Shown piece after piece: positions 2,688 to 64,000 of a DNA stretch of 64,000 nt. The translations under genes were made by a program, and so were the position numbers. This stretch comes from Bacteroidales bacterium (lineage in GTDB: Bacteria; Bacteroidota; Bacteroidia; Bacteroidales; 4484-276): NCBI GenBank assembly GCA_035647615.1, contig DASRND010000003.1, positions 3,135 to 67,134 on the forward strand. Direction: 5' to 3'. Under the pieces are notes generated by a model. That model did not search any database, was not told the DNA's origin, and saw only the letters and a list, made by a program, of their open reading frames with translations. Position 1 is the stretch's first letter; each line of letters begins with the position of its first letter.

Positions 2688-4118
2688 ATGAAACAATGGA
2701 TCATTTTATTGATTGCCTTGACAACCATACTGATACCTCACTCGTGTGACATTGACTCAACTTCTTCTGACACTGACGCCCTTGCTGCTATACAGGATAA
2801 GTCGCTGAGCGACATACTGCAAAGAGGCAAACTCATAGCCACCACCAATTATAATTCGTCCAATTATTTTATCTACCGTGGCGAACCGGCGGGCTATGAA
2901 TACGAGATGCTCGAGGCTTACGCCCAACATCTTGGCGTGGATCTGGAGCTGATTGTTAATGATAGCTACGAAGAAGCACTTGCCGACCTTGAGCGTGGCA
3001 AGGTAGATTTGATTGCCATGGGAATAAAAGTTATTGGTGAACGCACTCGGCAGGTCGACTTCAGCAAACCTTTGCTGCAAACCCGCCAGGTTCTGGTGCA
3101 ACGACTGCCCGCCAACTGGCGGCAGATGCGCACCACTGCCGAAGTGCAGCAGCATCTTATCCGCAACCCGCTCGATCTGGCCGGCAAAATGGTGTACGTA
3201 CCACGCCATTCGGCTTACAGCCTGCGTCTGCACAACCTGCAGGAAGAAATGGGCGACAGTATTATGATCGTGGAGTTTCCGCAGTCGGATGAAAAACTAA
3301 TAGAGATGGTAGCCCGCGGTGAGATAGATTACACCGTGTGCGATGAACATGTGGCCATCGTAAACAAGAAATATTTCCCCGATATCGACGTGGAAACAGC
3401 ACTTAGCTTTCCACAAAATGTGGCCTGGGCAATGAAAAAGCAAGACAATGCCCTACAGCAAAATCTCAACGAATGGCTCGGGACTTTCACCGACAGCCGC
3501 ATAGCACAGCATATTTATAACAAATATTTTGTTAATCCCCGCTCAATGCAATTCGCACACAAATATCACTCGGTGCGCAGCGGACGTATCTCCAAATGGG
3601 ACGACATCCTCAGGCAGAAAAGCAACGAGCTGGGATGGGACTGGCGATTGGTAGCTTCGCTGGTGTTTCAGGAATCGCGGTTTCAGACAGATGCCACTTC
3701 ATGGATGGGCGCGCAGGGACTGATGCAGCTCATGCCCGGCACCGCCCAAATTTATGGCGTCGACAGCCTCTCGTCACCTGTCGAAAATATTATCGCCGGC
3801 ATAAAGTATCTGAAAATGCTCGATAATAGGTTTAAAGATATTGTGCAAGACCCCGACGAGCGTATCAAATTTGTACTCGCCGCATACAATGCCGGTATTG
3901 CCCACGTCTTCGACGCCCGTCGCCTGGCCGAAAAGTATGGCCGCGACCCAAACGTGTGGGCCAACAATGTGGACTATTTTCTGCTCAACAAATCCAACCC
4001 TAAATATTACAACGATGACGTTGTCTTTTACGGCTATTGCCGTGGCGAAGAATCCTTCAATTATGTCAACGACATCCTGCAGCGATTCGAGCATTATCGC
4101 AATGTTATTCCGGGGTAG
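2688..4118 (+). CDS. mltF: membrane-bound lytic murein transglycosylase F-like (SBP family 3 domain + SLT domain)
   Basis: 476 aa. Signal peptide, an N-terminal solute-binding-protein-like half, and a C-terminal SLT catalytic motif (FQESRFQ...GAQGLMQLMPGTA...AYNAG). Confidence 0.8.
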   Translation: MKQWIILLIALTTILIPHSCDIDSTSSDTDALAAIQDKSLSDILQRGKLIATTNYNSSNYFIYRGEPAGYEYEMLEAYAQHLGVDLELIVNDSYEEALADLERGKVDLIAMGIKVIGERTRQVDFSKPLLQTRQVLVQRLPANWRQMRTTAEVQQHLIRNPLDLAGKMVYVPRHSAYSLRLHNLQEEMGDSIMIVEFPQSDEKLIEMVARGEIDYTVCDEHVAIVNKKYFPDIDVETALSFPQNVAWAMKKQDNALQQNLNEWLGTFTDSRIAQHIYNKYFVNPRSMQFAHKYHSVRSGRISKWDDILRQKSNELGWDWRLVASLVFQESRFQTDATSWMGAQGLMQLMPGTAQIYGVDSLSSPVENIIAGIKYLKMLDNRFKDIVQDPDERIKFVLAAYNAGIAHVFDARRLAEKYGRDPNVWANNVDYFLLNKSNPKYYNDDVVFYGYCRGEESFNYVNDILQRFEHYRNVIPG

Positions 4119-46974: not shown

Positions 46975-47013
46975 TTAACAAAACCTTAACAGCTTTTAAC
47001 AGCCTCTTAACAG
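46975..47013. promoter_or_regulatory. four phased direct repeats TTAACA(G/A), candidate response-regulator binding sites
   Basis: TTAACAA at 46975, TTAACAG at 46986, 46996 and 47007. Spacings are 11, 10 and 11 nt. They lie in the 154-nt divergent spacer between the HK start and the small Cys-rich ORF. Confidence 0.5.
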
Positions 47014-47032
47014 CTACCGTCTGACGCAGGTG

Positions 47033-49739: not shown

Positions 49740-51302
49740 TTATTCCACCACCATTTTGCGCACCCTGTTGATGTTGTCGCCGGTAAGCGAGAAATAATAA
49801 ACGCCGGGCGCCAGGTTGTATTTGCGAGCGTCAAAATGTTCGAGATACATACCGCTGCTGAGCTTTTCATGATCGATCAGACAAGCAATCTGTCGGCCGA
49901 AAATGTCGATAACTTTAAGCGTAACCGTTGCCGGACTTCGGAGTTTAAACGAAAAATGTGTGGTGGCGCTGAACGGGTTGGGATAATTCTGGTTGAGTGC
50001 AAAGGGAATTGCGGATTCGATGTGATTACTGATGCCTGTTGAGATGGTGTCGATGATGGCCGTCCACACACTTAGCTGGCCATTGTGCAGGCGCGTCCAG
50101 ATGGGTCGAATCACATTGTTGACAGCTGAGATATTGTTGTAATCGCCAAAGAAAATACTCGACACGGGAACAAAAGGCTCCTCGCTGATTTTGTAATTAC
50201 TGATGGTTTCGCCGCCATCGGTGGAAGTGGCCATGTAAACGTCAGTATTGCTGTCGGTATAGTTGCGGCGATCGTAAAACACAAAATGCAGATGGCCGGT
50301 AAACTGATCCAAAGTCATCCAGGTAAAAAATTGATGCCTCCCGGGCGGGTCATCGTTTACACGGATGCGTTCCGTCCAGGTGTCACCGCCGTCGGTTGAT
50401 TTAACGAGCCAAACATCGGTGTCGTCAGTGCCGTTGCGTTGATCGGACCAGTTGATGTAAATAGTTCCATGATTTGGGCCGCCACTTCTGTCGCACACTG
50501 TTATTGGGAAACCGTTGCACCGGGAAATACCGGGGATTTCAAAATCCCATCCACCGGGAAGATCGCTCACAAATATGTCGTTTTCGAGCCAGGTTTCTCC
50601 CTGGTCAAGCGACCGGTCAAAAACCAACCCCAGCGGCCCTGCCCAACAAACGTAGATTTCGCCATTAGGACCTACCGAGGGCACAGCGCCTTCTACGGTT
50701 TCGTCGCTATCGATACAGTTGCCATCGACTTCGTTTATCCGCAAAGCCTCCGACCAGCTTTCGCCGCTGTCGGTAGATTTCGAAAACATAATATTGCTTC
50801 GGTGCTGTAAATTGCTGTCGCCATAAACATCAAACTGCGTCCAGGTTGCGTAAAGATTGCCATTGTTTCTATCCACGTCTACCCATGGCTTATCCTGATC
50901 TTTCCCATTCAATCCCATATAAGAACCCTGGCTCCAGGTGACCCCGCCATCCGTCGATTTCTGACATACGATACGGTCGAGCCAATTCCCATTAGATGGG
51001 TTGGAAAGATGAAAATAATAATAATGCCCATGCTCATCTACAATTACCATCGGGTCACCGGCCACGCCATACGCTGACGAATATAGTTTCTTCACGTTCC
51101 AACTGTAGCCACCATCATTTGAGTAAAACAAGTTGTTAATATTAGAACCGGCAATAATGCGATTGGTATTGTTGGGATCGATGTAAATAGTTGGCTCCTC
51201 CGGATAGCTCGAATTGCTAATCATCACGTTGGTGTGCTGTGCGGCGAGCTGCTGCAAACCAAACATGGCAAAGAAAAGAATCGCCATTTTCAGTGTCTTC
51301 AT
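49740..51302 (-). CDS. BNR/Asp-box beta-propeller (sialidase-superfamily-like) protein with T9SS type-A CTD
   Basis: 520 aa. Signal peptide. Six canonical S-x-D-x-G-x-[TS]-W boxes (YSNDGGYSW, KSTDGGVTW, KSTDSGESW, RSLDQGETW, KSTDGGDTW, TSTDGGETI). CTD: LNQNYPNPFS...VIDIFGRQI...GVYYFSL. Confidence 0.8.
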   Translation of the reverse strand: MKTLKMAILFFAMFGLQQLAAQHTNVMISNSSYPEEPTIYIDPNNTNRIIAGSNINNLFYSNDGGYSWNVKKLYSSAYGVAGDPMVIVDEHGHYYYFHLSNPSNGNWLDRIVCQKSTDGGVTWSQGSYMGLNGKDQDKPWVDVDRNNGNLYATWTQFDVYGDSNLQHRSNIMFSKSTDSGESWSEALRINEVDGNCIDSDETVEGAVPSVGPNGEIYVCWAGPLGLVFDRSLDQGETWLENDIFVSDLPGGWDFEIPGISRCNGFPITVCDRSGGPNHGTIYINWSDQRNGTDDTDVWLVKSTDGGDTWTERIRVNDDPPGRHQFFTWMTLDQFTGHLHFVFYDRRNYTDSNTDVYMATSTDGGETISNYKISEEPFVPVSSIFFGDYNNISAVNNVIRPIWTRLHNGQLSVWTAIIDTISTGISNHIESAIPFALNQNYPNPFSATTHFSFKLRSPATVTLKVIDIFGRQIACLIDHEKLSSGMYLEHFDARKYNLAPGVYYFSLTGDNINRVRKMVVE

Positions 51303-53322: not shown

Positions 53323-56300
53323 ATGACTAAAAAAGGGGAAATCATGAATTTATTTTACAACTGGATTACCAGGGGGGTGATTTATGCCTTGGCGCTAGTA
53401 ATATGCACTTCAACCACACTCAACGCACAAAATTATTCTCAGCCATCTGGTGAACTAACTCAAGAAGAGCCTGGGGTTACTATTAACAGAATCAGAATTC
53501 TTGATTCTTTACTGCAAAATTACAATACCAAAGCCCCGTTTGTTTATCCTCCGGGATGGGACGTGCCGGTAAACACCGGAAATATTACCGGTGTGTACGT
53601 GGCACGTGAGGCCAAACCCAGCATCAACGGGATTCCGCTGAAGCAAAACGATGCTATAGGCGGCTTTTTCATCAATGACCAGGGCGAGTACCAGTGTGCC
53701 GGAGCCATTTATTGGCCTGACACTTCCGGGATAGTTTTTTCAATATTTGGCGACGATCCGCAAACACCTGTCAAAGAAGGTTTCGCATGGGGTGAAACCA
53801 TTCACTACAAGTTGTTTTCCTATGATCTTATGGCTGAATTCGATGTGGACGAAATTCAACTTAGTCCCGATTATTTGATGATTAATAAATGGTATCCACT
53901 TAGCCTGATCGGAATCGTAAAGATGAATTGTTATGAGGACATAATCGTTCGCGCCACAGCTGACAAGGAGTTTTTTTGCAATCAGGGTACAGCATTGCTG
54001 GATGCTGAAATCATCACCGGATTCGGGAACATCACTTATAGCTGGACCTCTGACCCTCCCGGTTTTTCCTCCTCACTAAAGAGTCCATCAGCAAACGTTA
54101 CCGAAAATACTGTTTTTAAGGTTCGGGCTTCTATGGGCAATGCTACCGCAAGCAGTATTATCCCCATCTGCATAAACCATTCATCCATGGTAGATGCCGG
54201 GATGGATATAGAGGTATGCGGTATCGATAGAATTTTGCTCGCACCATTAGCTCAGAATGTTTCCGAAGTTCAATGGGCAACATCCGGTGATGGCACTTTT
54301 GAAAATAGTAACGCAGCCAATACTTTTTATTTTTTTGGTGGAGGTGATCTGAATAATAGTGGAGTAACTCTCAATATCTCCGGCCTGCCATTGGCGCCTT
54401 GCACTGCTGTTGCTACAGATCAGATGGAGATAACACTTTTCCCGTCTCCTCAGGTTACAATCCCTCAAGGACTTTTCACCTGCCAGGAAATCCCTGTTGA
54501 TATTGAAGCAACAGCGACTAATGTTTCGGGACTTTTGTGGCAAACGGATGGTAACGGAACTTTTAGCAATCCTACCTCACTTGTTACAACCTACACTAAT
54601 GGCACATACGGAAATATGCATTCCTCTGTCCGGCTTACGCTTACCGGTTACGGACAGTCGCCTTGTGATGCTACTTTTGTTGACGAAACTTACCTCCAGA
54701 TTAATAAACCTGCAGTATGCTTTGCTGGAGTCGGTGCAACCATTTGTGCCAACGAAACCTACACCACCTGTGCTACCGCTTCTTATCAAAATACCGTAAA
54801 GTGGTCTACCAGCGGTGACGGCACCTTTTCTGACGACACCCAATTAATTACCACCTATACCCCCGGACCTAATGACAAAATCACAGGCAAACCACGTCTA
54901 ACCTTGTGCGTTACCTCTATTGCTCCGTGCACAGGATCCAAATACTCGAGGATGGATCTTTGGATTAAACCCGAACCGACAGTAAATGCTATCGATGATT
55001 TTGCCATCATCAACACTGATATAATTCCGCTTAATGCCACTGCTTCTTCCTATTCATCTTTACAATGGTCAACTTCAGGCGATGGAACTTTTGCCGAGGC
55101 TCAGCAAGCTGCTACAAATTATTATCCGGGACCGGATGATATCGAGATTGGTACCGTCATTCTCGGTTTACAGGCCAACCCGCTGGCACCCTGCGCCACA
55201 CCAGCACAAGATGAACTAATGGTTAGTCTTGTAGAAGGTGCTAAAGCCAATGCAGGCCCGGATTTAACGATCTGTGGTGCCACCACGGTAACTTTACAAG
55301 GCAGTGCCTCCAATTACGTTTCAGTGCTTTGGTCTACCTCGGGCGATGGCACCTTTTCCAACGCCAATCAACTGACAACGCAATACACCCCCGGAACTGA
55401 CGACGAAGCGTCCGGTGAGGTAGTACTAACACTCACACCCTTTGGTGAGCCACCTTTTGTAAACGGAAATCCTGATCACAAGACCGTGACTATCCTCCAA
55501 CCTGCAGTTGTGAATAAGATTATTGCGCTGACGGCAGTTTGTCAAACACAAGCAATAAATCTCTCGGCTACAGCCTCACATTATGCTTCTCTGATGTGGA
55601 CATCCTCCGGCAACGGGGCCTTTAACAACACTTCAATAATAAACCCGCAATATACTCCAGGAACGGTGGACATAGCCAATGGCAGCGTGGTGATTACCGT
55701 TACGGCAGCTTCGGTTGCGCCTTGTTCGGGCAATGCCACGAAGAGTAAAACGATACAGATAAAACATGCGCCTGTGGCAAATGCAGGAAACGACGTCACC
55801 GTTTGCCAGGGAACGCAAGTTCCGGTTAACGGAACTGCCCAGCACAATGGTAGTATCCTTTGGACGACAACAGGAGACGGCGTTTTTGCAAACCCGCAAC
55901 AATTAGCAACCAGCTATATTCCCGGAAACGGCGATGTGCAGTCAGGAACCGTAACGTTTACACTAACAGCAGCAGCCATACAACCATGTACAGTTTCTGC
56001 AGCAGATCAGCTTGTGGCTAAAATATTCAAAAATCCGGTTTGCAATGCAGGTATCGATATTGTTTCCTGCGAAAGAGAGCCCATTGCGATAAGCGGCACC
56101 GCAACCAACTATAATTCTTTGGTTTGGGAAACCACCGGTAGCGGCACTTTTGCAAACAAATATGCAAAGAACACAACTTATCATCCCTCCGATCAAGATG
56201 TAACAAATGGCGGCGTCACACTTACACTAAAAGCGCTGCCCATGACGCCTTGCCAGATAACCGCTGAGGATAGCAAGCTGATCACTTTATCGGTTTCGCC

Positions 56301-59300
56301 AATCGTTGTTGCTGGCAACAATATCATCGTTTGCGAACAACAAAGTGTGCAGCTTAACGGAACAGCTACCAACGCCCAATCCGTTATTTGGAGTTCGGAT
56401 GGAAATGGCGTTTTCGCTAATGCATCATCCTTATCAACCACCTATACACCCGGTAACCTTGACATTACGAATGGCAAGGCGGTGCTTCACTTAACTGCAA
56501 TTTCCGGAAATGCTTGCAACAATGTAACCGGTTCCCTCACTGTTTCCATTATTAAAAATCCTGTGGTGAATGCCGGCAACGACGGACAAGTGGCTCTCGG
56601 CAGCAGCTTTAAAACCAATGAAGCATCAGCAATACATACCAACAGCACGCTGTGGACAACACCTAATGGCGATGGTATCATTCAAAATGCAAATGCTATT
56701 AAGGCAACATACGTTCCGGTGGAAGCTGACTATTATGCCGGTGTTGTTACCCTTATTCTTACAGCAGCACCTATCAATCCCTGTATTACATCTGTTTCTG
56801 ATGAAATAAATCTCATCGTTACTTCCGGATGTGAAGACGCCACAGCTGTTGCCGGAGCAGATATGGAAATCTGCTACTATCCAAATACACCCATAACTCT
56901 GGCGGCAGCGACAGCACAAAATCACGCATCGCTGCTTTGGACTACGCAAGGTGACGGCACTTTTAGCAATGCCACTCAGCTGCATCCAAACTATACACCC
57001 GGAAATGGAGATGCCCAAAATGGCTTTGTAATTTTAAATCTTTTGGCCAGGGGCACAGGCGTTTGCAATGATGCCACAGATCAAATAAAAATCGTCCTTA
57101 TCCAACCTGCTACGGTGGATGCAGGAATTGACGCTACAATTTGTGTCAATCAATCATTTAATACAAACGGAGCGGCCTCCAATACCGAAGCCCTTCAATG
57201 GACAACCTCCGGAGATGGCAGCTTTGCCATTCCCAATCAATTAAAAACAACATATTTACCGGGCACAGCCGATAGAGTTGCCGGTCAGGTTCAATTATGC
57301 CTCAGTGCCGAAGGCCTTCAGAGCTGCCCCGCCGTTTCTGATTGCATGACCCTACACTTTCAACCATTGCCAACGATTTTTGCGGGATCGGATTTAACAC
57401 TCATCGTCGGTGATCTTTATAATACAAATGTGGCTCAGGCCTATAATTTTTCATCATTATTATGGAGTACTTCCGGCGACGGCACCTTTACGAATCCTTT
57501 GAAATTGTCGACCATCTACACGCCCGGACAAATGGATTGTCAAAACATGGTTGTAACGCTTACGCTGACGGCCTACTCAAAAAGCCCTTGCATGGGTAGT
57601 ATTCAGGATGATTTGGTGATCACTTTCGTGAATGGATGCGAAGACGCCACGGTTGATGTTGGTCCCGACAGAACAGTATGCGAATCGGCCAATGTTGACT
57701 TGGGAGGAGTTGTGCAAAACCAGACTTCAGTGCTCTGGAATACCAATGGCGATGGAACCTTCGATGCTTCCGCAAATATTGATGCTACTTATTTCCCCGG
57801 CACAGCCGACCTCGCTAATGGCAATGTTCAGCTTTGTCTTACAGCTTTTGCTAATGGCGAATGCAACGACGCCACCGACTACTTAAACATCACCTTTGGG
57901 AAGGCTCCGATTGCAAATGCCGGTCCTGATATTTCGACATGTAAAACCAATGCTTTCGTAAAGCTAAATGGTCAGGCACAAAACAACGAGTCGTTTCAGT
58001 GGATAACGCTGGGAACGGGCTATTTTGTTCCGCCGACAAGTAGCACCCCCAAATACTTCTTTAGTGGCCTGGACAAAGAAGTGGGCGAAGTACAGTTGAT
58101 CTTTGCAGTCACTAATGCTGCATGCGGTACCGCCGCTGACACAATGACCATAACCCTCCTCAACCCACCGCTCGTTTCCGCCGGCGCCGATGCTACCATT
58201 TGCGCAAGCCAGCCCTTTACAAATAATGATGCTACCGCAACGGATTTTTCGGCACTGCTCTGGAGTACCAATGGCGATGGTACTTTTGATGATGCCTCGA
58301 TGCTTCATGCTACCTACACTGCAGGTACTATCGACGCGGCTGCCGGCACAGTAACACTAACGCTGGCGGCTGACGGCCAGTCAGATTGCCAGCAGGCACA
58401 AAGCAGCCACACGCTTACGCTGATTCCTTCGGCTTACGCCAATGCAGGCGAAGATCGCACCATCTGCGAAACGGGAACTGTGAGCCTTACAGGCCAGGCT
58501 GCCAATTATGAAAGCTTATTGTGGGAAACCACCGGCGACGGCACCTTTGCTAACGCTGCTGCTTTGAACACTATCTATTTCCCGGGAGCCGGTGATCTTA
58601 CTCTCAGGTACTTGGAAATTAGCCTCACGGCTTACGCTGCAGGCAATTGCGGAGACGATTTCAGCGAATTACAAATTAACATCTTACCTGCGCCCTTCAC
58701 CAATGCCGGCAACAACCAGCAAATTTGTGCAGGTGAGCAGGTGCAATTATCGGCCACAGCCGCCAATTACGACGGTTTGTTATGGAGCACCAATGGCGAC
58801 GGGATTTTCAGCAATCCGTCGGCGCTTAGCGCAATGTACACACCCGGCGCTACCGACTTATCCTCCGGAGGCGTCACTTTGTGCCTCACTGCTGTGGGTA
58901 CCGAACCCTGCGGCGAAGTGATGGATTGTTTAGAAATCGACATCATAGCGCTCCCCACAGTAAATGCCGGAGCCGATGCCACGCTTTGCCAAAACAAAAC
59001 ATTGCTGCTCACGGGCAACGCTGCAAATTATAGCTCACTACAGTGGACAACAGCAGGCGATGGTACATTTACCAATACATCCGGAGCCAACGCTCAATAT
59101 TATCCGGGAAATGGGGATATTTCAGCCGGAAATGTGGTGATATGCCTGAATGCTCAGGGACTGTCAGGGTGTGGAATTGCTAACGATTGTATGGTGCTCA
59201 CCCTGCAAAAGAACCCGGTGGTTTTTGCCGGCAACGATGCCACCATCGATCAGGGCAGCAGCTTTCAAACCCTTCAGGCTAATGCCCAGAACTACTCCTG

Positions 59301-62300
59301 GTTAGAATGGAGCACTTCGGGAAGCGGAACTTTTGCTAACCCGCTGCAGGCAGTCACTACCTACACTCCGTCGCAGGCCGATTGCCAAAACCAGCCGGTG
59401 ACACTTACCCTTACTGCATTACCCAAAAACCCATGTACCGCGTCTGTAAGCGATGCGCTTTTGTTAACCATCAACATCCTGGATCTTATGGCAGATGCGG
59501 GGGATGATGCTGTGATTTGTTCAGGCCAGAATTTGCAACTTGCAGCTCAGGCCATCAACTACAGCACACTGCAATGGAGCACCAGCGGCAACGGAACTTT
59601 TGACGATGCTACAGCTCTGAATCCTATTTATATCCCATGTTCATCTGATGCTTTCAACGGACCGATAACACTGTGCCTGAAAGCTTTTGGCAACGATGCC
59701 GGTCAAAGCATCACCGATTGCCTTACGCTTACCTTTCAGCACCTGCCCATAGCGTTTGCCGGATCGGATAACACGGTTCCCATCGACGAAGGCTGCCCCC
59801 TTCATGAGTCTTTTGCTGAAAATTATGAAACCATTCAATGGTACACTTCCAACGGAATGGGAATGTTCGACAAAGAAAATATTTTGCATCCTACCTACTA
59901 TGCCTCACCCATGGACATTACGCAAAGCGAAATATTCCTATACATGGCTGTTTCGCCAATGAGCCCATGTGAGATTGGTGACGAAGACATGGTAGCTGTG
60001 AAATTTGTAAACGGTTATGCCAACGCAACGGCCTATGCCGGAGCCGACATGCACCTCTGCAAGGGCCTCGAAACTGAGGAGGTTTCCCTTACAGAAGCGG
60101 TAGCTGAAAACTTTAGCAGCATCCTGTGGAGTACCGGCGGCACTGGAACTTTCAATTATGATCACATCAGCCGCCCCCAATATTATCCTTCAGAACAGGA
60201 TCTCGCCAATGGATCGGTAACCCTAACCATGTCGGTAGCAGCTTTCGGTACCTATGCCCCTGCCACCGATCAGATTGTACTTTATTTTGATGAAATGCCT
60301 CAAGTTTGGGCAGGAAACGACATGACGGTGTGCAGCACGGATAATCTGCAGCTTTATGGCACAGCAAGTAATTACGCATCACTTACCTGGACCACCACAG
60401 GCGATGGCGTATTTGTAAATGGCAATACACCGCAGGCCACTTATTATCCGGGACCCGGAGATGTAATAGTTCCCAGCGTTACGCTATGTCTGGAAGCCGA
60501 AGGCTATGGCGAATGTTTTTCGGCCAGCGACTGCATGACGGTAACCTTTGTGCCAGTTCCGGGAGTTAGTGCCGGGATTGATGCAGCAGTATGTGCCGGC
60601 AGTTCACATTTGCTCCAGGGTACAGCATCAAACTTTGCAAGTGTACTATGGACCACTGCAGGCGACGGCAACTTTGATAATGCCACGCTGTTGCAGGCGA
60701 AATACACTCCCGGAGCAGCCGATATACTTTCCGGCAGCGTTAAGCTGTGCCTTACTGCACAAGGATTGATGGGATGCCCCGAAAACACAAGTTGCATGAC
60801 TATCACAATACAACGAAACCCGATAGCTAATGCCGGTCAGGATGCAGTAGCTATTACCGGCCAGCAATATCTCATCAACGACGCCACCGCACAATTTCAT
60901 TCAGCAGTACAGTGGATCACAAGCGGGGATGGTATCTTTGGGAATGCCGGTGAGCTAAACACCACCTACACGCCGTCAGCATTTGACGAGCAGCAACAGC
61001 AAGTAACGCTCACGCTCCAGGCAGCTCCGATAAATCCTTGCACCGTTGCAGCGAGCGACGAGAAGCAGCTTACCATTACACCCGATTGCCAGGATGCTAT
61101 TGCTGATGCCGGCACTGATCTCACCGTTTGTTATGGCGGCGCCATAGCGCTTAGCGCAACAGCTCAAAACCATACCGGAGTAGAGTGGAATACCAATGGC
61201 GATGGAACCTTCGATGCTTCCGCAAATATTGATGCTACTTATTTCCCCGGCACCGCCGACCTCGTTAATGGAAATGTTCAGCTTTGCCTCACCGCTTTCG
61301 CTAATGGCGAATGCAACGACGCCACTGATTGCATAGAAATTACCTTTGGCACCGTTCCCATTGTAAATGCCGGTGAGGATGTCACCATTTGTACTACAGA
61401 AGATTTTATTCAACTGGAGGGTATTGTTATTAACGGTGATAATTATCAATGGATTTCCACCGGACAGGGATATTTCGATCCGACCAATCAACTTGTGACG
61501 AAATATATCTTCAGCAGGTACGATAAAATTGATGGGTATGTAGATTTGATTCTGGCGGCCACTAAAAGCCCTTGCCCAACGGTGTATGATACCTTACACG
61601 TTACTTTCAATCCCGATCCTATTGTTTATGCCGGGGAAGATGCTACCATTTGTGGCAACGATGAATACCTAATTTTTGAAGCTTTTGCTGCCGAATACCA
61701 AAGCCTGGAATGGACGACTTCGGGTGATGGCACTTTTGAAGATGCAACCGCACTCAATACAATTTATTATCCAGGGTCGGGTGATATTGACGCCGAAACC
61801 ATTGAGCTGCAACTGATCGCATATCCTCTGGAGGGATGCGCTCCAGATGCAAGTTCGTTTATGCTTACGCTAATTCCGTCGGCTTACGCCAATGCTGGAA
61901 GCGATCTTACCATTTGTGAAACGGAAATTGCCAGTCTTTTTGGTCAGGCTTCCGGATATGAAAGCCTGCTGTGGGAAACCAGCGGCGACGGAATCTTTGG
62001 CAATGCTGCTGCACTCAACACCACTTATTTGCCGGGAGCCGGAGATCTTACGCTCGGTCAGGTAGAAATCAGCCTCACCGCATTCTCATCAGGGAATTGC
62101 GGCGACGCTGTCAGCGATATGCTGATTACAATCTTACCTGTACCCACCGCCAATGCAGGCAATAGCCAGCATATTTGTGCGGGCGACCAGGTGCAGTTGT
62201 CGGCCACTGCTGCCAATTATGCCAGCCTGTCGTGGAGTACCAGCGGCGACGGCGTATTCAGTAATCCTTCGGCGCTTAGCGCAATGTACACACCCGGTGA

Positions 62301-64000
62301 AACTGATCTGCAGAATGGATTTGCAGAGTTGTGTCTGACCGCGGTTTCAGCTGCTGCCTGTGTTGATGCTTATTCCTGTATCGAAATTGTTATCGAAAGC
62401 AGCCCGGTTGCTAACGCAGGTGCTAATGCTGTGATTTGTCAAAACCAAAATTATCAGCTATCAGCTAATGCAGAAAACCACAGCAGCATCGCATGGAGCA
62501 CCCTGGGCGACGGGTCGTTTGATAATGCAGCTTCACCCGCTGCCATTTACACGCCGGGAGCTGCAGACATCAGCCAAGGAAGCGCAGTGCTGATACTTAC
62601 AGCTTTCGCTGATGGCGTATGTGCCGATGCAACAGATGAAATGTTGCTTACCATTCAACTCTTGCCTGTGATTAATGCCGGAACGGATTTCACCATCTGC
62701 GAAAGCAACTTTGCGCAATTGAATGCCACGGGAACAAATTACAGCAGCATATTGTGGATAACCATAGGCGATGGAACTTTTGATGATGCCGCACTGCCAC
62801 AAGCTATTTATTTTCCGGGTGTAAATGATGTTTCAAATGGCTTTGCCAATCTCACCATCACCGCGCAGGGAATTTTACCTTGTACACAAAGCACCGACGA
62901 TTTGCACATTACACTGCAACCTGTTCCGGAAGTAGCTGCAATGGAAAATGCTTCCATCTGTCCGGATCAAAGCATAACTGTTGAAGGTTTTGTTACTCAT
63001 TATCAATCGGTATTTTGGAGCACTACAGGCGATGGAACTTTTGCAACGCCACAGACGCTCACTTCGGTATATTTTCCGGGTACCAACGACATAGAAACAG
63101 GAGGCGCTCAATTATGCCTTACCGCCATAGGACTTTATGATTGCGGTAACGCACAAGCCTGCATGCAGCTAACCATTATCAGCCTGCCGGAAGTAACAGC
63201 CGGCAACGATGTTACGATTTGCAACACCGGTATCGTGGAGCTTTCGGCACAAGCCAATAACTATGAAACGCTGCAATGGATGTCGGATGGCGACGGAACC
63301 TTCAGTGCCAGCACGGCACTCCTCGGCACCTATGCTCCCAGCGCTAATGATATTGCTGTCGGAAGTGTAAAACTCTGCCTCAATGCTTTTGCAGCAAATG
63401 GTTGTGGTCAATCGCAGGATTGCCTGATCGTTACTCTGGAAGCTCCGCCGACGGCTGATGCGGGAATTGATCAGACACTTTGCGTGAATCAAAATGCAAC
63501 TGTTTCGGGCGTAGTCACAAACGTAACGTCAGTGCTTTGGTCGACCAGCGGAGACGGTACTTTTGGAAATTCATCTGCTCTTACCACAATCTATTATCCG
63601 GGTGCAGCAGATTATGTAAATTTAAGTGTGGAACTGTGCCTTACAGCAAATGGTAATGGCATTTGCGATCCGGTGAGTGATTGTGTTGAAATGACTTTCC
63701 AGCCCGGCCCAACAGCTTTTGCCGGAAATGATGTAACGTTGTGTGCCAATCAAAATGTACCACTACAGGCAGCTGCCACCGAATACTCATCCGTATTTTG
63801 GAGTACCAGTGGGACGGGTAGTTTTAGTAATCCACAGATATTGAACCCCACTTATTTCCCAAGCCAGGCTGATAAAAATAATGGTTTCGTTCAGCTAACT
63901 ATCAGAGCAAATGGAGCCAACGGATGCGGCTACGTCACGGATGCCGTCGCAGTTACGTTTGTTCCGGTACCTGTAGCCAATGCCGGTGCTGATGCAACTA
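53323..64000 (+). CDS. giant secreted tandem-repeat protein, 5' part only (about 3,555 codons or more; 3' end beyond window)
   Basis: Frame 1 is open from the stop at 53290-53292 to base 64000. The track does not list it because it has no stop in the window. Candidate starts are ATG 53323 and ATG 53344 (MTKKGEIMNLFYNWITRGVIYALALVICTSTTLNAQ). A ~285-aa unique region is followed by 37 tandem 87-96-aa units. Confidence 0.85.
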   Translation, partial: MTKKGEIMNLFYNWITRGVIYALALVICTSTTLNAQNYSQPSGELTQEEPGVTINRIRILDSLLQNYNTKAPFVYPPGWDVPVNTGNITGVYVAREAKPSINGIPLKQNDAIGGFFINDQGEYQCAGAIYWPDTSGIVFSIFGDDPQTPVKEGFAWGETIHYKLFSYDLMAEFDVDEIQLSPDYLMINKWYPLSLIGIVKMNCYEDIIVRATADKEFFCNQGTALLDAEIITGFGNITYSWTSDPPGFSSSLKSPSANVTENTVFKVRASMGNATASSIIPICINHSSMVDAGMDIEVCGIDRILLAPLAQNVSEVQWATSGDGTFENSNAANTFYFFGGGDLNNSGVTLNISGLPLAPCTAVATDQMEITLFPSPQVTIPQGLFTCQEIPVDIEATATNVSGLLWQTDGNGTFSNPTSLVTTYTNGTYGNMHSSVRLTLTGYGQSPCDATFVDETYLQINKPAVCFAGVGATICANETYTTCATASYQNTVKWSTSGDGTFSDDTQLITTYTPGPNDKITGKPRLTLCVTSIAPCTGSKYSRMDLWIKPEPTVNAIDDFAIINTDIIPLNATASSYSSLQWSTSGDGTFAEAQQAATNYYPGPDDIEIGTVILGLQANPLAPCATPAQDELMVSLVEGAKANAGPDLTICGATTVTLQGSASNYVSVLWSTSGDGTFSNANQLTTQYTPGTDDEASGEVVLTLTPFGEPPFVNGNPDHKTVTILQPAVVNKIIALTAVCQTQAINLSATASHYASLMWTSSGNGAFNNTSIINPQYTPGTVDIANGSVVITVTAASVAPCSGNATKSKTIQIKHAPVANAGNDVTVCQGTQVPVNGTAQHNGSILWTTTGDGVFANPQQLATSYIPGNGDVQSGTVTFTLTAAAIQPCTVSAADQLVAKIFKNPVCNAGIDIVSCEREPIAISGTATNYNSLVWETTGSGTFANKYAKNTTYHPSDQDVTNGGVTLTLKALPMTPCQITAEDSKLITLSVSPIVVAGNNIIVCEQQSVQLNGTATNAQSVIWSSDGNGVFANASSLSTTYTPGNLDITNGKAVLHLTAISGNACNNVTGSLTVSIIKNPVVNAGNDGQVALGSSFKTNEASAIHTNSTLWTTPNGDGIIQNANAIKATYVPVEADYYAGVVTLILTAAPINPCITSVSDEINLIVTSGCEDATAVAGADMEICYYPNTPITLAAATAQNHASLLWTTQGDGTFSNATQLHPNYTPGNGDAQNGFVILNLLARGTGVCNDATDQIKIVLIQPATVDAGIDATICVNQSFNTNGAASNTEALQWTTSGDGSFAIPNQLKTTYLPGTADRVAGQVQLCLSAEGLQSCPAVSDCMTLHFQPLPTIFAGSDLTLIVGDLYNTNVAQAYNFSSLLWSTSGDGTFTNPLKLSTIYTPGQMDCQNMVVTLTLTAYSKSPCMGSIQDDLVITFVNGCEDATVDVGPDRTVCESANVDLGGVVQNQTSVLWNTNGDGTFDASANIDATYFPGTADLANGNVQLCLTAFANGECNDATDYLNITFGKAPIANAGPDISTCKTNAFVKLNGQAQNNESFQWITLGTGYFVPPTSSTPKYFFSGLDKEVGEVQLIFAVTNAACGTAADTMTITLLNPPLVSAGADATICASQPFTNNDATATDFSALLWSTNGDGTFDDASMLHATYTAGTIDAAAGTVTLTLAADGQSDCQQAQSSHTLTLIPSAYANAGEDRTICETGTVSLTGQAANYESLLWETTGDGTFANAAALNTIYFPGAGDLTLRYLEISLTAYAAGNCGDDFSELQINILPAPFTNAGNNQQICAGEQVQLSATAANYDGLLWSTNGDGIFSNPSALSAMYTPGATDLSSGGVTLCLTAVGTEPCGEVMDCLEIDIIALPTVNAGADATLCQNKTLLLTGNAANYSSLQWTTAGDGTFTNTSGANAQYYPGNGDISAGNVVICLNAQGLSGCGIANDCMVLTLQKNPVVFAGNDATIDQGSSFQTLQANAQNYSWLEWSTSGSGTFANPLQAVTTYTPSQADCQNQPVTLTLTALPKNPCTASVSDALLLTINILDLMADAGDDAVICSGQNLQLAAQAINYSTLQWSTSGNGTFDDATALNPIYIPCSSDAFNGPITLCLKAFGNDAGQSITDCLTLTFQHLPIAFAGSDNTVPIDEGCPLHESFAENYETIQWYTSNGMGMFDKENILHPTYYASPMDITQSEIFLYMAVSPMSPCEIGDEDMVAVKFVNGYANATAYAGADMHLCKGLETEEVSLTEAVAENFSSILWSTGGTGTFNYDHISRPQYYPSEQDLANGSVTLTMSVAAFGTYAPATDQIVLYFDEMPQVWAGNDMTVCSTDNLQLYGTASNYASLTWTTTGDGVFVNGNTPQATYYPGPGDVIVPSVTLCLEAEGYGECFSASDCMTVTFVPVPGVSAGIDAAVCAGSSHLLQGTASNFASVLWTTAGDGNFDNATLLQAKYTPGAADILSGSVKLCLTAQGLMGCPENTSCMTITIQRNPIANAGQDAVAITGQQYLINDATAQFHSAVQWITSGDGIFGNAGELNTTYTPSAFDEQQQQVTLTLQAAPINPCTVAASDEKQLTITPDCQDAIADAGTDLTVCYGGAIALSATAQNHTGVEWNTNGDGTFDASANIDATYFPGTADLVNGNVQLCLTAFANGECNDATDCIEITFGTVPIVNAGEDVTICTTEDFIQLEGIVINGDNYQWISTGQGYFDPTNQLVTKYIFSRYDKIDGYVDLILAATKSPCPTVYDTLHVTFNPDPIVYAGEDATICGNDEYLIFEAFAAEYQSLEWTTSGDGTFEDATALNTIYYPGSGDIDAETIELQLIAYPLEGCAPDASSFMLTLIPSAYANAGSDLTICETEIASLFGQASGYESLLWETSGDGIFGNAAALNTTYLPGAGDLTLGQVEISLTAFSSGNCGDAVSDMLITILPVPTANAGNSQHICAGDQVQLSATAANYASLSWSTSGDGVFSNPSALSAMYTPGETDLQNGFAELCLTAVSAAACVDAYSCIEIVIESSPVANAGANAVICQNQNYQLSANAENHSSIAWSTLGDGSFDNAASPAAIYTPGAADISQGSAVLILTAFADGVCADATDEMLLTIQLLPVINAGTDFTICESNFAQLNATGTNYSSILWITIGDGTFDDAALPQAIYFPGVNDVSNGFANLTITAQGILPCTQSTDDLHITLQPVPEVAAMENASICPDQSITVEGFVTHYQSVFWSTTGDGTFATPQTLTSVYFPGTNDIETGGAQLCLTAIGLYDCGNAQACMQLTIISLPEVTAGNDVTICNTGIVELSAQANNYETLQWMSDGDGTFSASTALLGTYAPSANDIAVGSVKLCLNAFAANGCGQSQDCLIVTLEAPPTADAGIDQTLCVNQNATVSGVVTNVTSVLWSTSGDGTFGNSSALTTIYYPGAADYVNLSVELCLTANGNGICDPVSDCVEMTFQPGPTAFAGNDVTLCANQNVPLQAAATEYSSVFWSTSGTGSFSNPQILNPTYFPSQADKNNGFVQLTIRANGANGCGYVTDAVAVTFVPVPVANAGADAT
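57655..59226 (+). repeat. higher-order block copy 1 (units 14-19)
   Basis: Collinear with 61105-62673 at a constant 3,450-nt offset. Includes a 68-nt perfect match (57736-57803 = 61186-61253) and a 29-nt perfect match (58819-58847 = 62269-62297). Confidence 0.8.
61105..62673 (+). repeat. higher-order block copy 2 (units 27-32)
   Basis: See copy 1. Unit-by-unit correspondence: 14/27 (WNTNGDGTFDA in both), 15/28 (atypical G-x-G-Y-F core in both), 17/30 and 18/31. Confidence 0.8.

Follow-up and report, generated by a model that had tools for sequence, protein, structure and literature searches.

The 64,000-nucleotide (nt) stretch of contig DASRND010000003.1 analyzed here (the window; positions 3,135 to 67,134 of the forward strand in assembly GCA_035647615.1, from a Bacteroidales bacterium of GTDB lineage 4484-276) ends within a giant open reading frame (ORF) that encodes an array of divergent immunoglobulin (Ig)-like units, and this array carries a higher-order repeat in which a block of about ten units recurs 3,450 nt downstream. 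The most probable explanation, to which we assign a probability of about 0.75, is that the gene encodes a surface fiber exported by a type IX secretion system (T9SS) and that the higher-order repeat records block-wise growth and shrinkage of its stalk by unequal homologous recombination between paralogous domains.

The higher-order repeat of the Ig-like array

The 5' 10.66 kb of the gene lie in the window (53344 to 64000, forward strand), with no stop codon between 53293 and 64000. Position 53344 is the start set by the gene caller, and a further in-frame ATG is found at 53323. The unit table and alignment delimited 37 Ig-like units of 87 to 96 amino acids (aa) each (54199 to 63999, forward strand), with the consensus AG.D.T.C....L.A.A.N..S..W.T.GDGTF.N...L...Y.PG..D...G.V.L.LTA.....C....D. 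An invariant Trp in the motif W.T.GDGTF is central to every unit. Neighboring units have a mean nt identity of only ∼0.41 to 0.42 (maximum, 0.52), or ∼30% at the aa level, and Tandem Repeats Finder reported no array in the giant gene because the units are too diverged.

The repeat consists of block A, units 10 to 19 (56578 to 59232), and block B, units 22 and 24 to 32 (59764 to 62679), both on the forward strand and both delimited by identity matrices, diagonal statistics, and the order of cysteine types. A preliminary description of this DNA had reported a constant offset of 3,450 nt at six pairs of Trp codons, and TGG was present at each of the positions concerned. Among offsets of 30 to 8,000 nt, 3,450 nt gave the strongest ungapped self-identity in the ORF (0.375; the value at the 261-nt base period was 0.354, and the background was 0.251 ± 0.014). 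Unit identities were calculated from ungapped comparisons anchored on the Trp; global gapped alignments gave a noisy background of 53% in which the signal was hidden. In the resulting unit-by-unit matrix, the check that had been named beforehand as capable of overturning the repeat, the diagonal at +13 units was elevated, with a nine-unit sum of 5.23 compared to a mean of 3.68 (standard deviation, 0.17; maximum, 4.21) for the 391 other diagonals. The mean nt identity of all unit pairs compared in register was 0.41 ± 0.06. Identities along the +13 diagonal were 0.77 for units 14/27, 0.74 for 17/30, 0.65 for 18/31, 0.55 for 12/25, 0.54 for 16/29, 0.52 for 19/32, 0.51 for 15/28, 0.50 for 13/26, and 0.47 for 11/24, which agrees with the earlier statement that units 17 and 18 markedly resemble units 30 and 31 and that units 15 and 28 are about half identical. 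Five of these pairs (14/27, 15/28, 16/29, 17/30, and 18/31) were reciprocal best partners at both the nt and aa levels, and 12/25 was so at the nt level only.

The preliminary description had also held that the order of units 10 to 13 recurs in units 22 to 26 with one unit added, and this order was recovered (Fisher's combined P of ∼0.001 for 10/22, 11/24, 12/25, and 13/26; 11/24 was not significant by itself). Units 10 and 22, which are atypical in length (95 to 96 aa), are reciprocal best partners at +12, so that unit 23 (60052 to 60312, forward strand), inside the span of block B, is the extra unit. The order of cysteine patterns (two-Cys, four-Cys, and linker-Cys "CEDA") in units 12 to 18 is repeated in units 25 to 31. 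Collinear runs of best partners at a constant multiunit offset were also found in two orthologues from related species (contigs L007 and L014, described below) and in a distant homologue, P0121.

A minority unit type (units 10, 13, 20, 22, and 26; for example, 56578 to 56862, 57388 to 57660, and 60838 to 61110) lacks the usual N-terminal cysteine and punctuates the array at equivalent places in blocks A and B. Units 10, 13, and 26 end in a longer, Cys-containing linker (G-C-E/Q-D-A), and P0121 has units of comparable extra length (92 to 94 aa) at its block boundaries.

Two long exact matches between the blocks had been described, and both were found as reported. The longer one, of 68 nt, joins the cores of unit 14 (57736 to 57803) and unit 27 (61186 to 61253) and cannot be extended on either side. 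It lies in a tract of 87 to 89% identity (∼57715 to 57924 and ∼61165 to 61374; BLAST identity, 86.7% over 210 nt) and is longer than any run in 5,000 codon-column shuffles (maximum, 36); no other repeated 31-mer run occurs anywhere in the 64-kb window. The second, older tract of homogenization reaches from the end of unit 16 through unit 17 and halfway into unit 18 (58413 to 58847 and 61863 to 62297; forward strand, as are the 68-nt copies), with 77.7% identity over 435 nt by BLAST. The other exact match, of 29 nt (58819 to 58847 and 62269 to 62297), lies at its end. This shorter run was rejected as separate evidence of conversion: it is within the range of the shuffles, and it adds little because the orthologue is identical at 25 of 29 positions in the same stretch.

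In unit 14 of the window, codon 48 after the Trp (57878 to 57883) is in the motif DATDY, with Tyr at the position at which unit 27 and the unit-14 orthologues of L007 and L014 have a fourth cysteine (DATDC). Only in the window species, therefore, is the cysteine count of unit 14 odd.

Relative ages and unit-number differences among orthologues

Orthologous genes were available from two related species. One is represented by JGI contig Ga0265295_1000454 (L007), which covers 10.9 kb of the gene with 38 units, and by a contig (L006) of the GTDB metagenome-assembled genome "Bacteroidales bacterium AS10tlH2TH_145," which is 96.9% identical to L007 at the nt level and ends in unit 15. The other, L014 (NCBI GCA_964612515.1), was found through a neighboring transporter gene; its product has 5,159 aa, and 9.5 kb of the gene was compared. 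In the flanks, identities were 83.3% between the window and L007, 78.5% between the window and L014, and 79.5% between L007 and L014, and the corresponding values within the gene were 81.7%, 74.1%, and 75.6%. These values place L014 as the outgroup and L007 as the sister species of the window lineage.

In sliding comparisons over units 15 to 17, orthologues were 0.7 to 0.9 identical, compared to 0.35 to 0.6 for 15/28 and 16/29 within a genome. By Nei-Gojobori estimates, synonymous divergence (dS) ranged from 1.6 to saturation and nonsynonymous divergence (dN) from 0.5 to 0.8 for pairs 11/24, 12/25, 13/26, 15/28, 16/29, and 19/32, whereas most orthologous unit pairs had dS values of 0.4 to 0.9 and dN values of 0.07 to 0.2 (two exceeded this range). 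Orthologues are thus closer than paralogues, and the split between blocks A and B predates all three species. The segmental intragenic duplication that had been proposed from the window is therefore supported, but it is ancient and its history is more complex than one duplication.

The core of units 14 and 27 (57736 to ∼57880) is different. The two window copies are 0.94 to 0.97 identical, with a dS of 0.26 and a dN of 0.01, whereas all cross-species comparisons were ≤0.85 with dS values of 0.5 to 0.8. At 57751 to 57810, paralogues were closer than orthologues in both the window species and L007. The three core copies of L007 (units 14, 27', and 33) were 0.85 to 0.92 identical to each other, and the value for units 14 and 27' of L014 was 0.72 to 0.74. 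The unit-14/27 core has undergone concerted evolution, independently in the window and L007 lineages. In the 75 nt just upstream of the Trp codon, units 14 and 27 are 45% identical and orthologues are 83% identical, which places the start of the exchange tract at the domain's most conserved motif, as is also the case in L007.

With synonymous sites included, paralogues exceeded orthologues at the unit-14/27 core only and not in units 15, 16, and 17. For pair 17/30, paralogue identity (0.70 to 0.80) was about the same in L007 and the window, and the dS of the tract (end of unit 16 through unit 17) was 0.83, similar to the orthologue dS of 0.55 to 0.8, which puts the origin of this similarity near speciation or earlier. 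A separate recent conversion of 17/30 was rejected on the ground that the sister species has the same paralogue identity there. The N-terminal part of pair 18/31 had a dN of 0.09 but a dS of 1.29. Of the patchy gene conversion originally suggested, recent exchange therefore holds for the unit-14/27 core, whereas the similarity of 17/30 was inherited and the 29-nt run at 18/31 is not significant alone. A diversity-generating retroelement or another form of targeted mutagenesis was considered as the cause of the mosaic but not favored: the differences show no restriction to certain bases or positions, and each copy is tracked by its orthologues.

At the same 3,450-nt offset, L007 has a self-repeat that is 97.8% identical over 1,112 nt and contains an exact run of 847 nt. 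The L006 contig, from the same species, continues for 127 nt past the last position at which it differs from L007 and breaks off within this exact repeat, consistent with an assembly break at k=127.

The number of units varies between species. BLAST diagonals between L007 and the window shift by exactly +1,584 nt (six units) and then by −522 nt (two units), both in frame, and the products of the window gene and its L014 orthologue (4,632 and 5,159 aa) differ by 527 aa, which equals six units. Both L007 and L014 have a third, partial block, A', of six units and 1,584 nt. In L007, its first part runs from the unit-14 core to the middle of unit 18, copied 3,450 nt downstream of the original, and its second part is an older copy of unit 25C-27N, 1,584 nt from its source and 84.5% identical to it. 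The junction of the extra block is a hybrid unit, of which the first half is of the unit-18 type and the second half is of the unit-25 type. L014, an independent assembly that is collinear with L007 in this region, shares this extra block and its hybrid unit, with more diverged copies (75.6% and 77.7%), which removes the concern that the block in L007 is an assembly loop.

The region from the middle of unit 25 to unit 27 (60641 to 61393, forward strand) occurs in two copies separated by 1,584 nt in L007 and L014 (self-identities of 84.5% and 77.7%, respectively), and it is the probable site of an unequal crossover that removed A' in the window lineage. With L014 as the outgroup, loss of A' (1,584 nt) from the window lineage by an in-frame unequal crossover is the most likely event. 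In L007, which probably lost two units later, unit 36 corresponds to the first part of window unit 30 fused to the last part of unit 32 (30N and 32C). Contigs of the window species from four other sequencing runs are identical to it over the 5' part of the gene that they cover, ending short of the repeat or at it. The distant homologue P0121 (5,351 aa) has a threefold block repeat of its own (units 15 to 19, 30 to 34, and 47 to 50), which suggests that block-wise evolution is a property of the family.

Three Logan contigs of the L014 species, from three runs (L015, L017, and L018), all end at position 14221 of L014, 772 codons into the giant gene. No repeated 31-mer was present in the 21 kb of L014 examined, and a matching repeat may lie in the 3' part of the gene.

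Proposed history and rival explanations

We propose that the fiber has a stalk of ∼48 mutually divergent Ig-like domains, predicted to exceed 150 nm, with the head at its far end. An ancient duplication of a block of about ten domains would have given rise to block A (units 10 to 19) and block B (units 22 and 24 to 32). Before the three species split, a rearrangement would have placed A' (unit-14 core to mid unit 18), together with the 25C-27N copy, in front of block B. In the window lineage, a crossover between the 25C-27N copies most likely deleted exactly 1,584 nt (six domains), and this deletion of A' would have left block B 3,450 nt from block A. A recent exchange between the unit-14 and unit-27 cores of the same lineage would also have generated the 68-nt perfect run. 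In the sister lineage, a 1.1-kb tract would have been homogenized between A and A' (847 nt of it exact) and two domains would have been lost. All of the junctions are in frame and at equivalent domain positions. These junctions, the motif-bounded tracts, the whole-unit changes, and the lineage-specific homogenization point to unequal homologous recombination and gene conversion. The sequences themselves document the repeats with their relative ages, the homogenization, and the species differences in unit number; how recombination acted, which way each event went, and what the protein does are inferred.

RecA-dependent recombination needs a few tens of identical bases. The 68-nt run is the only identical substrate of more than 31 nt in the window genome, so that the window locus should be only weakly unstable; a crossover within the run would remove or add exactly 1,150 codons. 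The 847-nt exact repeat should make the L007 species far more unstable. The prediction is that 3,450-nt deletion variants are rare in the window organism and more frequent in the L007 species.

Several points weigh against this history. Copy number and block order were read from assembled contigs, not from sequencing reads. Rooting with L014 depends on similarity differences of 4 to 5 points and assumes clock-like rates; if L007 and L014 were instead grouped with the window lineage outside, gain of A' would be as parsimonious as its loss, and the 1,584-nt event would become a gain under an unchanged mechanism. The near-identity of the window unit-14 and unit-27 cores might be what the deletion crossover left of A' and not the product of a separate conversion; both would be nonallelic recombination, yet as distinct events. 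An exact repeat of 847 nt is traversed by the L007 contig, presumably a short-read assembly, and the loop could be multicopy; that the L007 arrangement is real is argued by a unique Eulerian path and by its diverged counterpart in L014. Finally, T9SS targeting relies on a precomputed Pfam match, and the C-terminal 1,080 aa lie beyond the window.

An artifact of metagenome assembly (a misjoin, a collapse, or a strain chimera) is a very improbable source of the arrangement. The window does match a short-read, SPAdes-style metagenome contig with ∼22× coverage, misassembly is common in repeat-rich genes, and related contigs break inside the giant gene. However, the 68-nt run is the longest exact repeat, and the copies differ by 13 to 50% outside it, which leaves nothing to collapse. 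The order of units 1 to 27 is collinear with both orthologues, and the exit from unit 27 to unit 28 is matched by L007 units 33 and 34. This collinearity of order and spacing covers both flanks of each copy and is gapless over 8 kb with L007, with a few short indels in L014; units 27 to 30 of block B are orthologous to L007 units 33 to 36. Moreover, independent Logan assemblies from the four other runs match the window at 100% identity throughout the 5' part that they cover. One of them (contig L002, from SRR5678806) breaks off at 57765, after exactly 30 nt of the 68-nt repeat, where branching of a k=31 graph is unavoidable if there is a second copy with a different left flank.

If the blocks are real, their mosaic identity might reflect a single old duplication followed by uneven divergence under differing purifying selection, with no gene conversion at all. 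This would suit pair 18/31, in which the combination of low dN and high dS (0.09 and 1.29) is a pattern of constraint, as well as the shared 17/30 profile of two species and a 29-nt run within the range of chance. It does not suit the unit-14/27 core, where synonymous sites are near-identical (dS of 0.26 versus 0.5 to 0.8 for orthologues) and where paralogues are closer than any orthologue in the window and, independently, in L007. Together with a 68-nt run beyond all 5,000 shuffles and the 847-nt exact tract in L007, this makes uneven divergence an improbable explanation. Constraint at the nt level, such as an embedded RNA or a regulatory element, is unlikely at the core because orthologues differ by 15 to 20% there. 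Programmed variation, in which frequent block recombination within a population switches stalk length or epitopes as in the Periscope proteins or cagY, is slightly less improbable but still doubtful. In line with it, the differences in unit number between species are whole in-frame blocks, junctions recur at one conserved motif (in L007 as in the window, the tract begins at the Trp codon), and the 847-nt exact repeat of L007 should recombine readily. Most of the duplication in the window, on the other hand, is too diverged to recombine: neighboring units are ∼41% identical in nt sequence, and the sole substrate of more than 31 nt is the one 68-nt run. Contigs from the four other runs are invariant over the 5' part and end before the repeat, and no site-specific recombinase, diversity-generating retroelement, or inverted-repeat switch was seen at the locus, although no search was aimed at them. 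There is a similarly small chance that the ∼13-domain super-repeat is itself functional, for example in lateral packing within a GhpA-like multimer or in the spacing of binding sites, with selection matching the unit-14-type domains, or, as a related possibility, that length variants are measurable within populations. A functional super-repeat would explain why the same domain core was homogenized repeatedly in separate lineages and why the unit-14-type core lies 3,450 nt from its nearest copy in all three species in spite of gained and lost units. Unequal recombination between paralogous domains, recording growth and shrinkage of the stalk, remains the explanation that we prefer.

Gene product, neighboring genes, and comparison with known systems

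The window sequence matches an ENA metagenome contig (L001; ERZ12298774 NODE_3, 360 kb) at 100% identity, and the gene table of this contig lists a product of 4,632 aa with PF18962 (Por_Secre_tail). The window gene thus extends ∼3.2 kb past the end of the window. The predicted product begins with a signal peptide and a head of 280 aa, continues with ∼48 divergent Ig-like domains, and ends in a putative T9SS sorting domain; PF18962 is also listed for the L014 orthologue. By this architecture, the protein may be a fibrillar surface protein of the GhpA/SprB kind. Type A T9SS cargo loses its sorting domain by cleavage and is tethered to the surface through the new C terminus (PMC5445135), so that the head would be the distal end of the window protein.

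The signal peptide and nonrepeat N-terminal head (∼280 aa; 53344 to 54198, forward strand) form the presumed distal tip. The signal peptide, identified by eye and not with a predictor, reads MNLFYNWITRGVIYALALVICTSTTLNA/QN; its hydrophobic core and A-x-A-like site are kept in orthologues. The head had no Pfam or NCBIfam matches, and a protein search with the N-terminal head as the query gave none. It is 79% identical at the aa level in L006 and L007 and 31 to 51% identical in P0121, P0136, P0196, P0187, and P0219. An AlphaFold2 (AF2) model of the head (pLDDT, 69) predicted two beta-sandwich modules. A fold search with this model returned just generic two-Ig-domain matches (TM of ∼0.2) and no specific fold, so that no ligand can be proposed. 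In P0121, the C-terminal ∼500 aa appear, by eye, to contain a second head-like module (GDDP.T.E.DGF) between the last Ig-like unit and the T9SS tail.

The AF2 model of a single unit, made from the alignment of the 37 units, was an all-beta, Ig-like sandwich of eight strands and one short helix (pLDDT, 95.7). Its best match in the PDB was the base of GhpA (9fly_A; TMq, 0.75; root mean square deviation, 2.2 Å; 19% identity), and other Foldseek matches included GhpA Ig-like domains, titin and palladin Ig domains, and the PKD domain of KIAA0319. Sequence searches were less informative. A unit-profile search of the PDB found no chain at E ≤ 0.1, no curated Pfam model reached its gathering score, and neither NCBIfam nor the Pfam SprB repeat model matched the units. 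PKD_4 scored 27.9 bits only when summed over 793 aa, and against single units it gave E values of 0.013 or worse and matched only 6 of the 37 at all. Homologous repeat proteins were numerous (4,258 cluster representatives at E ≤ 1e-3), and many have 3,000 to 7,000 aa. Shorter homologues are annotated as T9SS type A sorting-domain, CHU/CHU_C, or PKD proteins of Bacteroidales and Marinilabiliales.

A 520-aa BNR-repeat protein with a weak Por_Secre_tail match, encoded two genes upstream of the giant gene on the far side of the transporter gene (49740 to 51302, reverse strand), may be a second T9SS cargo; its position is kept in all relatives. Farther upstream, a TetR regulator and a three-gene resistance-nodulation-division (RND) efflux operon lie between the FKBP gene and a 207-aa gene in the outgroup relatives L014 (658 to 7248) and L019 (309 to 7094) and are absent from the window (∼48.8 to 49.0 kb) and L007. 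A 171-aa, TTG-initiated ORF (60976 to 61491, reverse strand) that is wholly within units 26 to 28 of the giant gene is most likely spurious. Scans of the whole 64-kb window detected no tRNA gene and no Rfam family at the gathering score, and the only tandem repeat reported between 45,000 and 64,000 was a two-copy 21-nt unit at 46975 to 47015.

GhpA, the grappling-hook protein of Aureispira, is a T9SS substrate of 5,898 aa with 52 repeats (PDB 9fly; bioRxiv 10.1101/2024.01.29.577165). Besides the superposition of the unit model on the GhpA base, the window repeats have conserved cysteines, and disulfides link nearby Ig-like domains in GhpA. However, the match is structural only, and at 19% identity membership in the GhpA family is unsupported by sequence. 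The window head is unrelated to that of GhpA and much smaller (280 versus ∼1,400 aa), and the sorting domain listed for the window gene product matches PF18962 (type A). GhpA itself is heptameric and binds flagella, with ghpB and ghpC (PorP/PorE-like) downstream of its gene, and the window gene was compared with it as a partial gene. SprB, "CHU large protein," and proteins with a gliding-motility-associated C-terminal domain are likewise giant proteins of Ig- or PKD-like repeats with a T9SS signal. SprB differs in having a type B sorting domain and moving on a helical track, and no finding connects the window gene with gliding.

Periscope proteins (SasG, Rib, Sgo_0707, and CdrA) have near-identical neighboring DNA repeats, the number of which varies between close strains, and the idea that low identity between neighbors limits misfolding has been mentioned in the same context (PMC8201768). 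In these proteins, as in the proposed window fiber, a stalk of tandem folded domains projects an N-terminal module, and their length changes by intragenic recombination. The window array lacks the high DNA identity between neighbors that characterizes Periscope genes (mean, 0.42; maximum, 0.52). Its similar units are instead 6 or 13 apart, and the changes were seen between species and in blocks of 2, 6, or 13. In Helicobacter pylori cagY, many direct DNA repeats in one surface-exposed protein gene recombine to give in-frame variants (PMC2194252). The repeats of cagY are short and highly similar and rearrange within strains during infection, whereas the changes in the window gene were seen between species.

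The nearest analogy may be titin, in which block duplication on a divergent Ig-like array also gave a higher-order period. The A band of this eukaryotic, intracellular protein has 7- and 11-domain super-repeats of Ig and FN3 domains that match the lattice of its structural partner. We know of no structural partner lattice for the window protein. Similar domains are kept apart in titin as well, which fits the idea of low identity between neighbors. A literature search for bacterial "super-repeats" found nothing relevant.

Block duplication, concerted evolution, and changes in repeat number are well known in surface-protein genes, and the present case is ordinary in kind and not a new system. 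It is a clean, datable example of length change in giant bacterial surface fibers. Because neighboring domains are kept dissimilar, recombination would occur between distant paralogous domains and so add or remove whole in-frame blocks (of 2, 6, or 13 domains), and because three related species have three versions of the gene, the order of events can be worked out. The case is also useful for annotating and assembling such genes in metagenomes, as contigs break precisely at the homogenized tracts.

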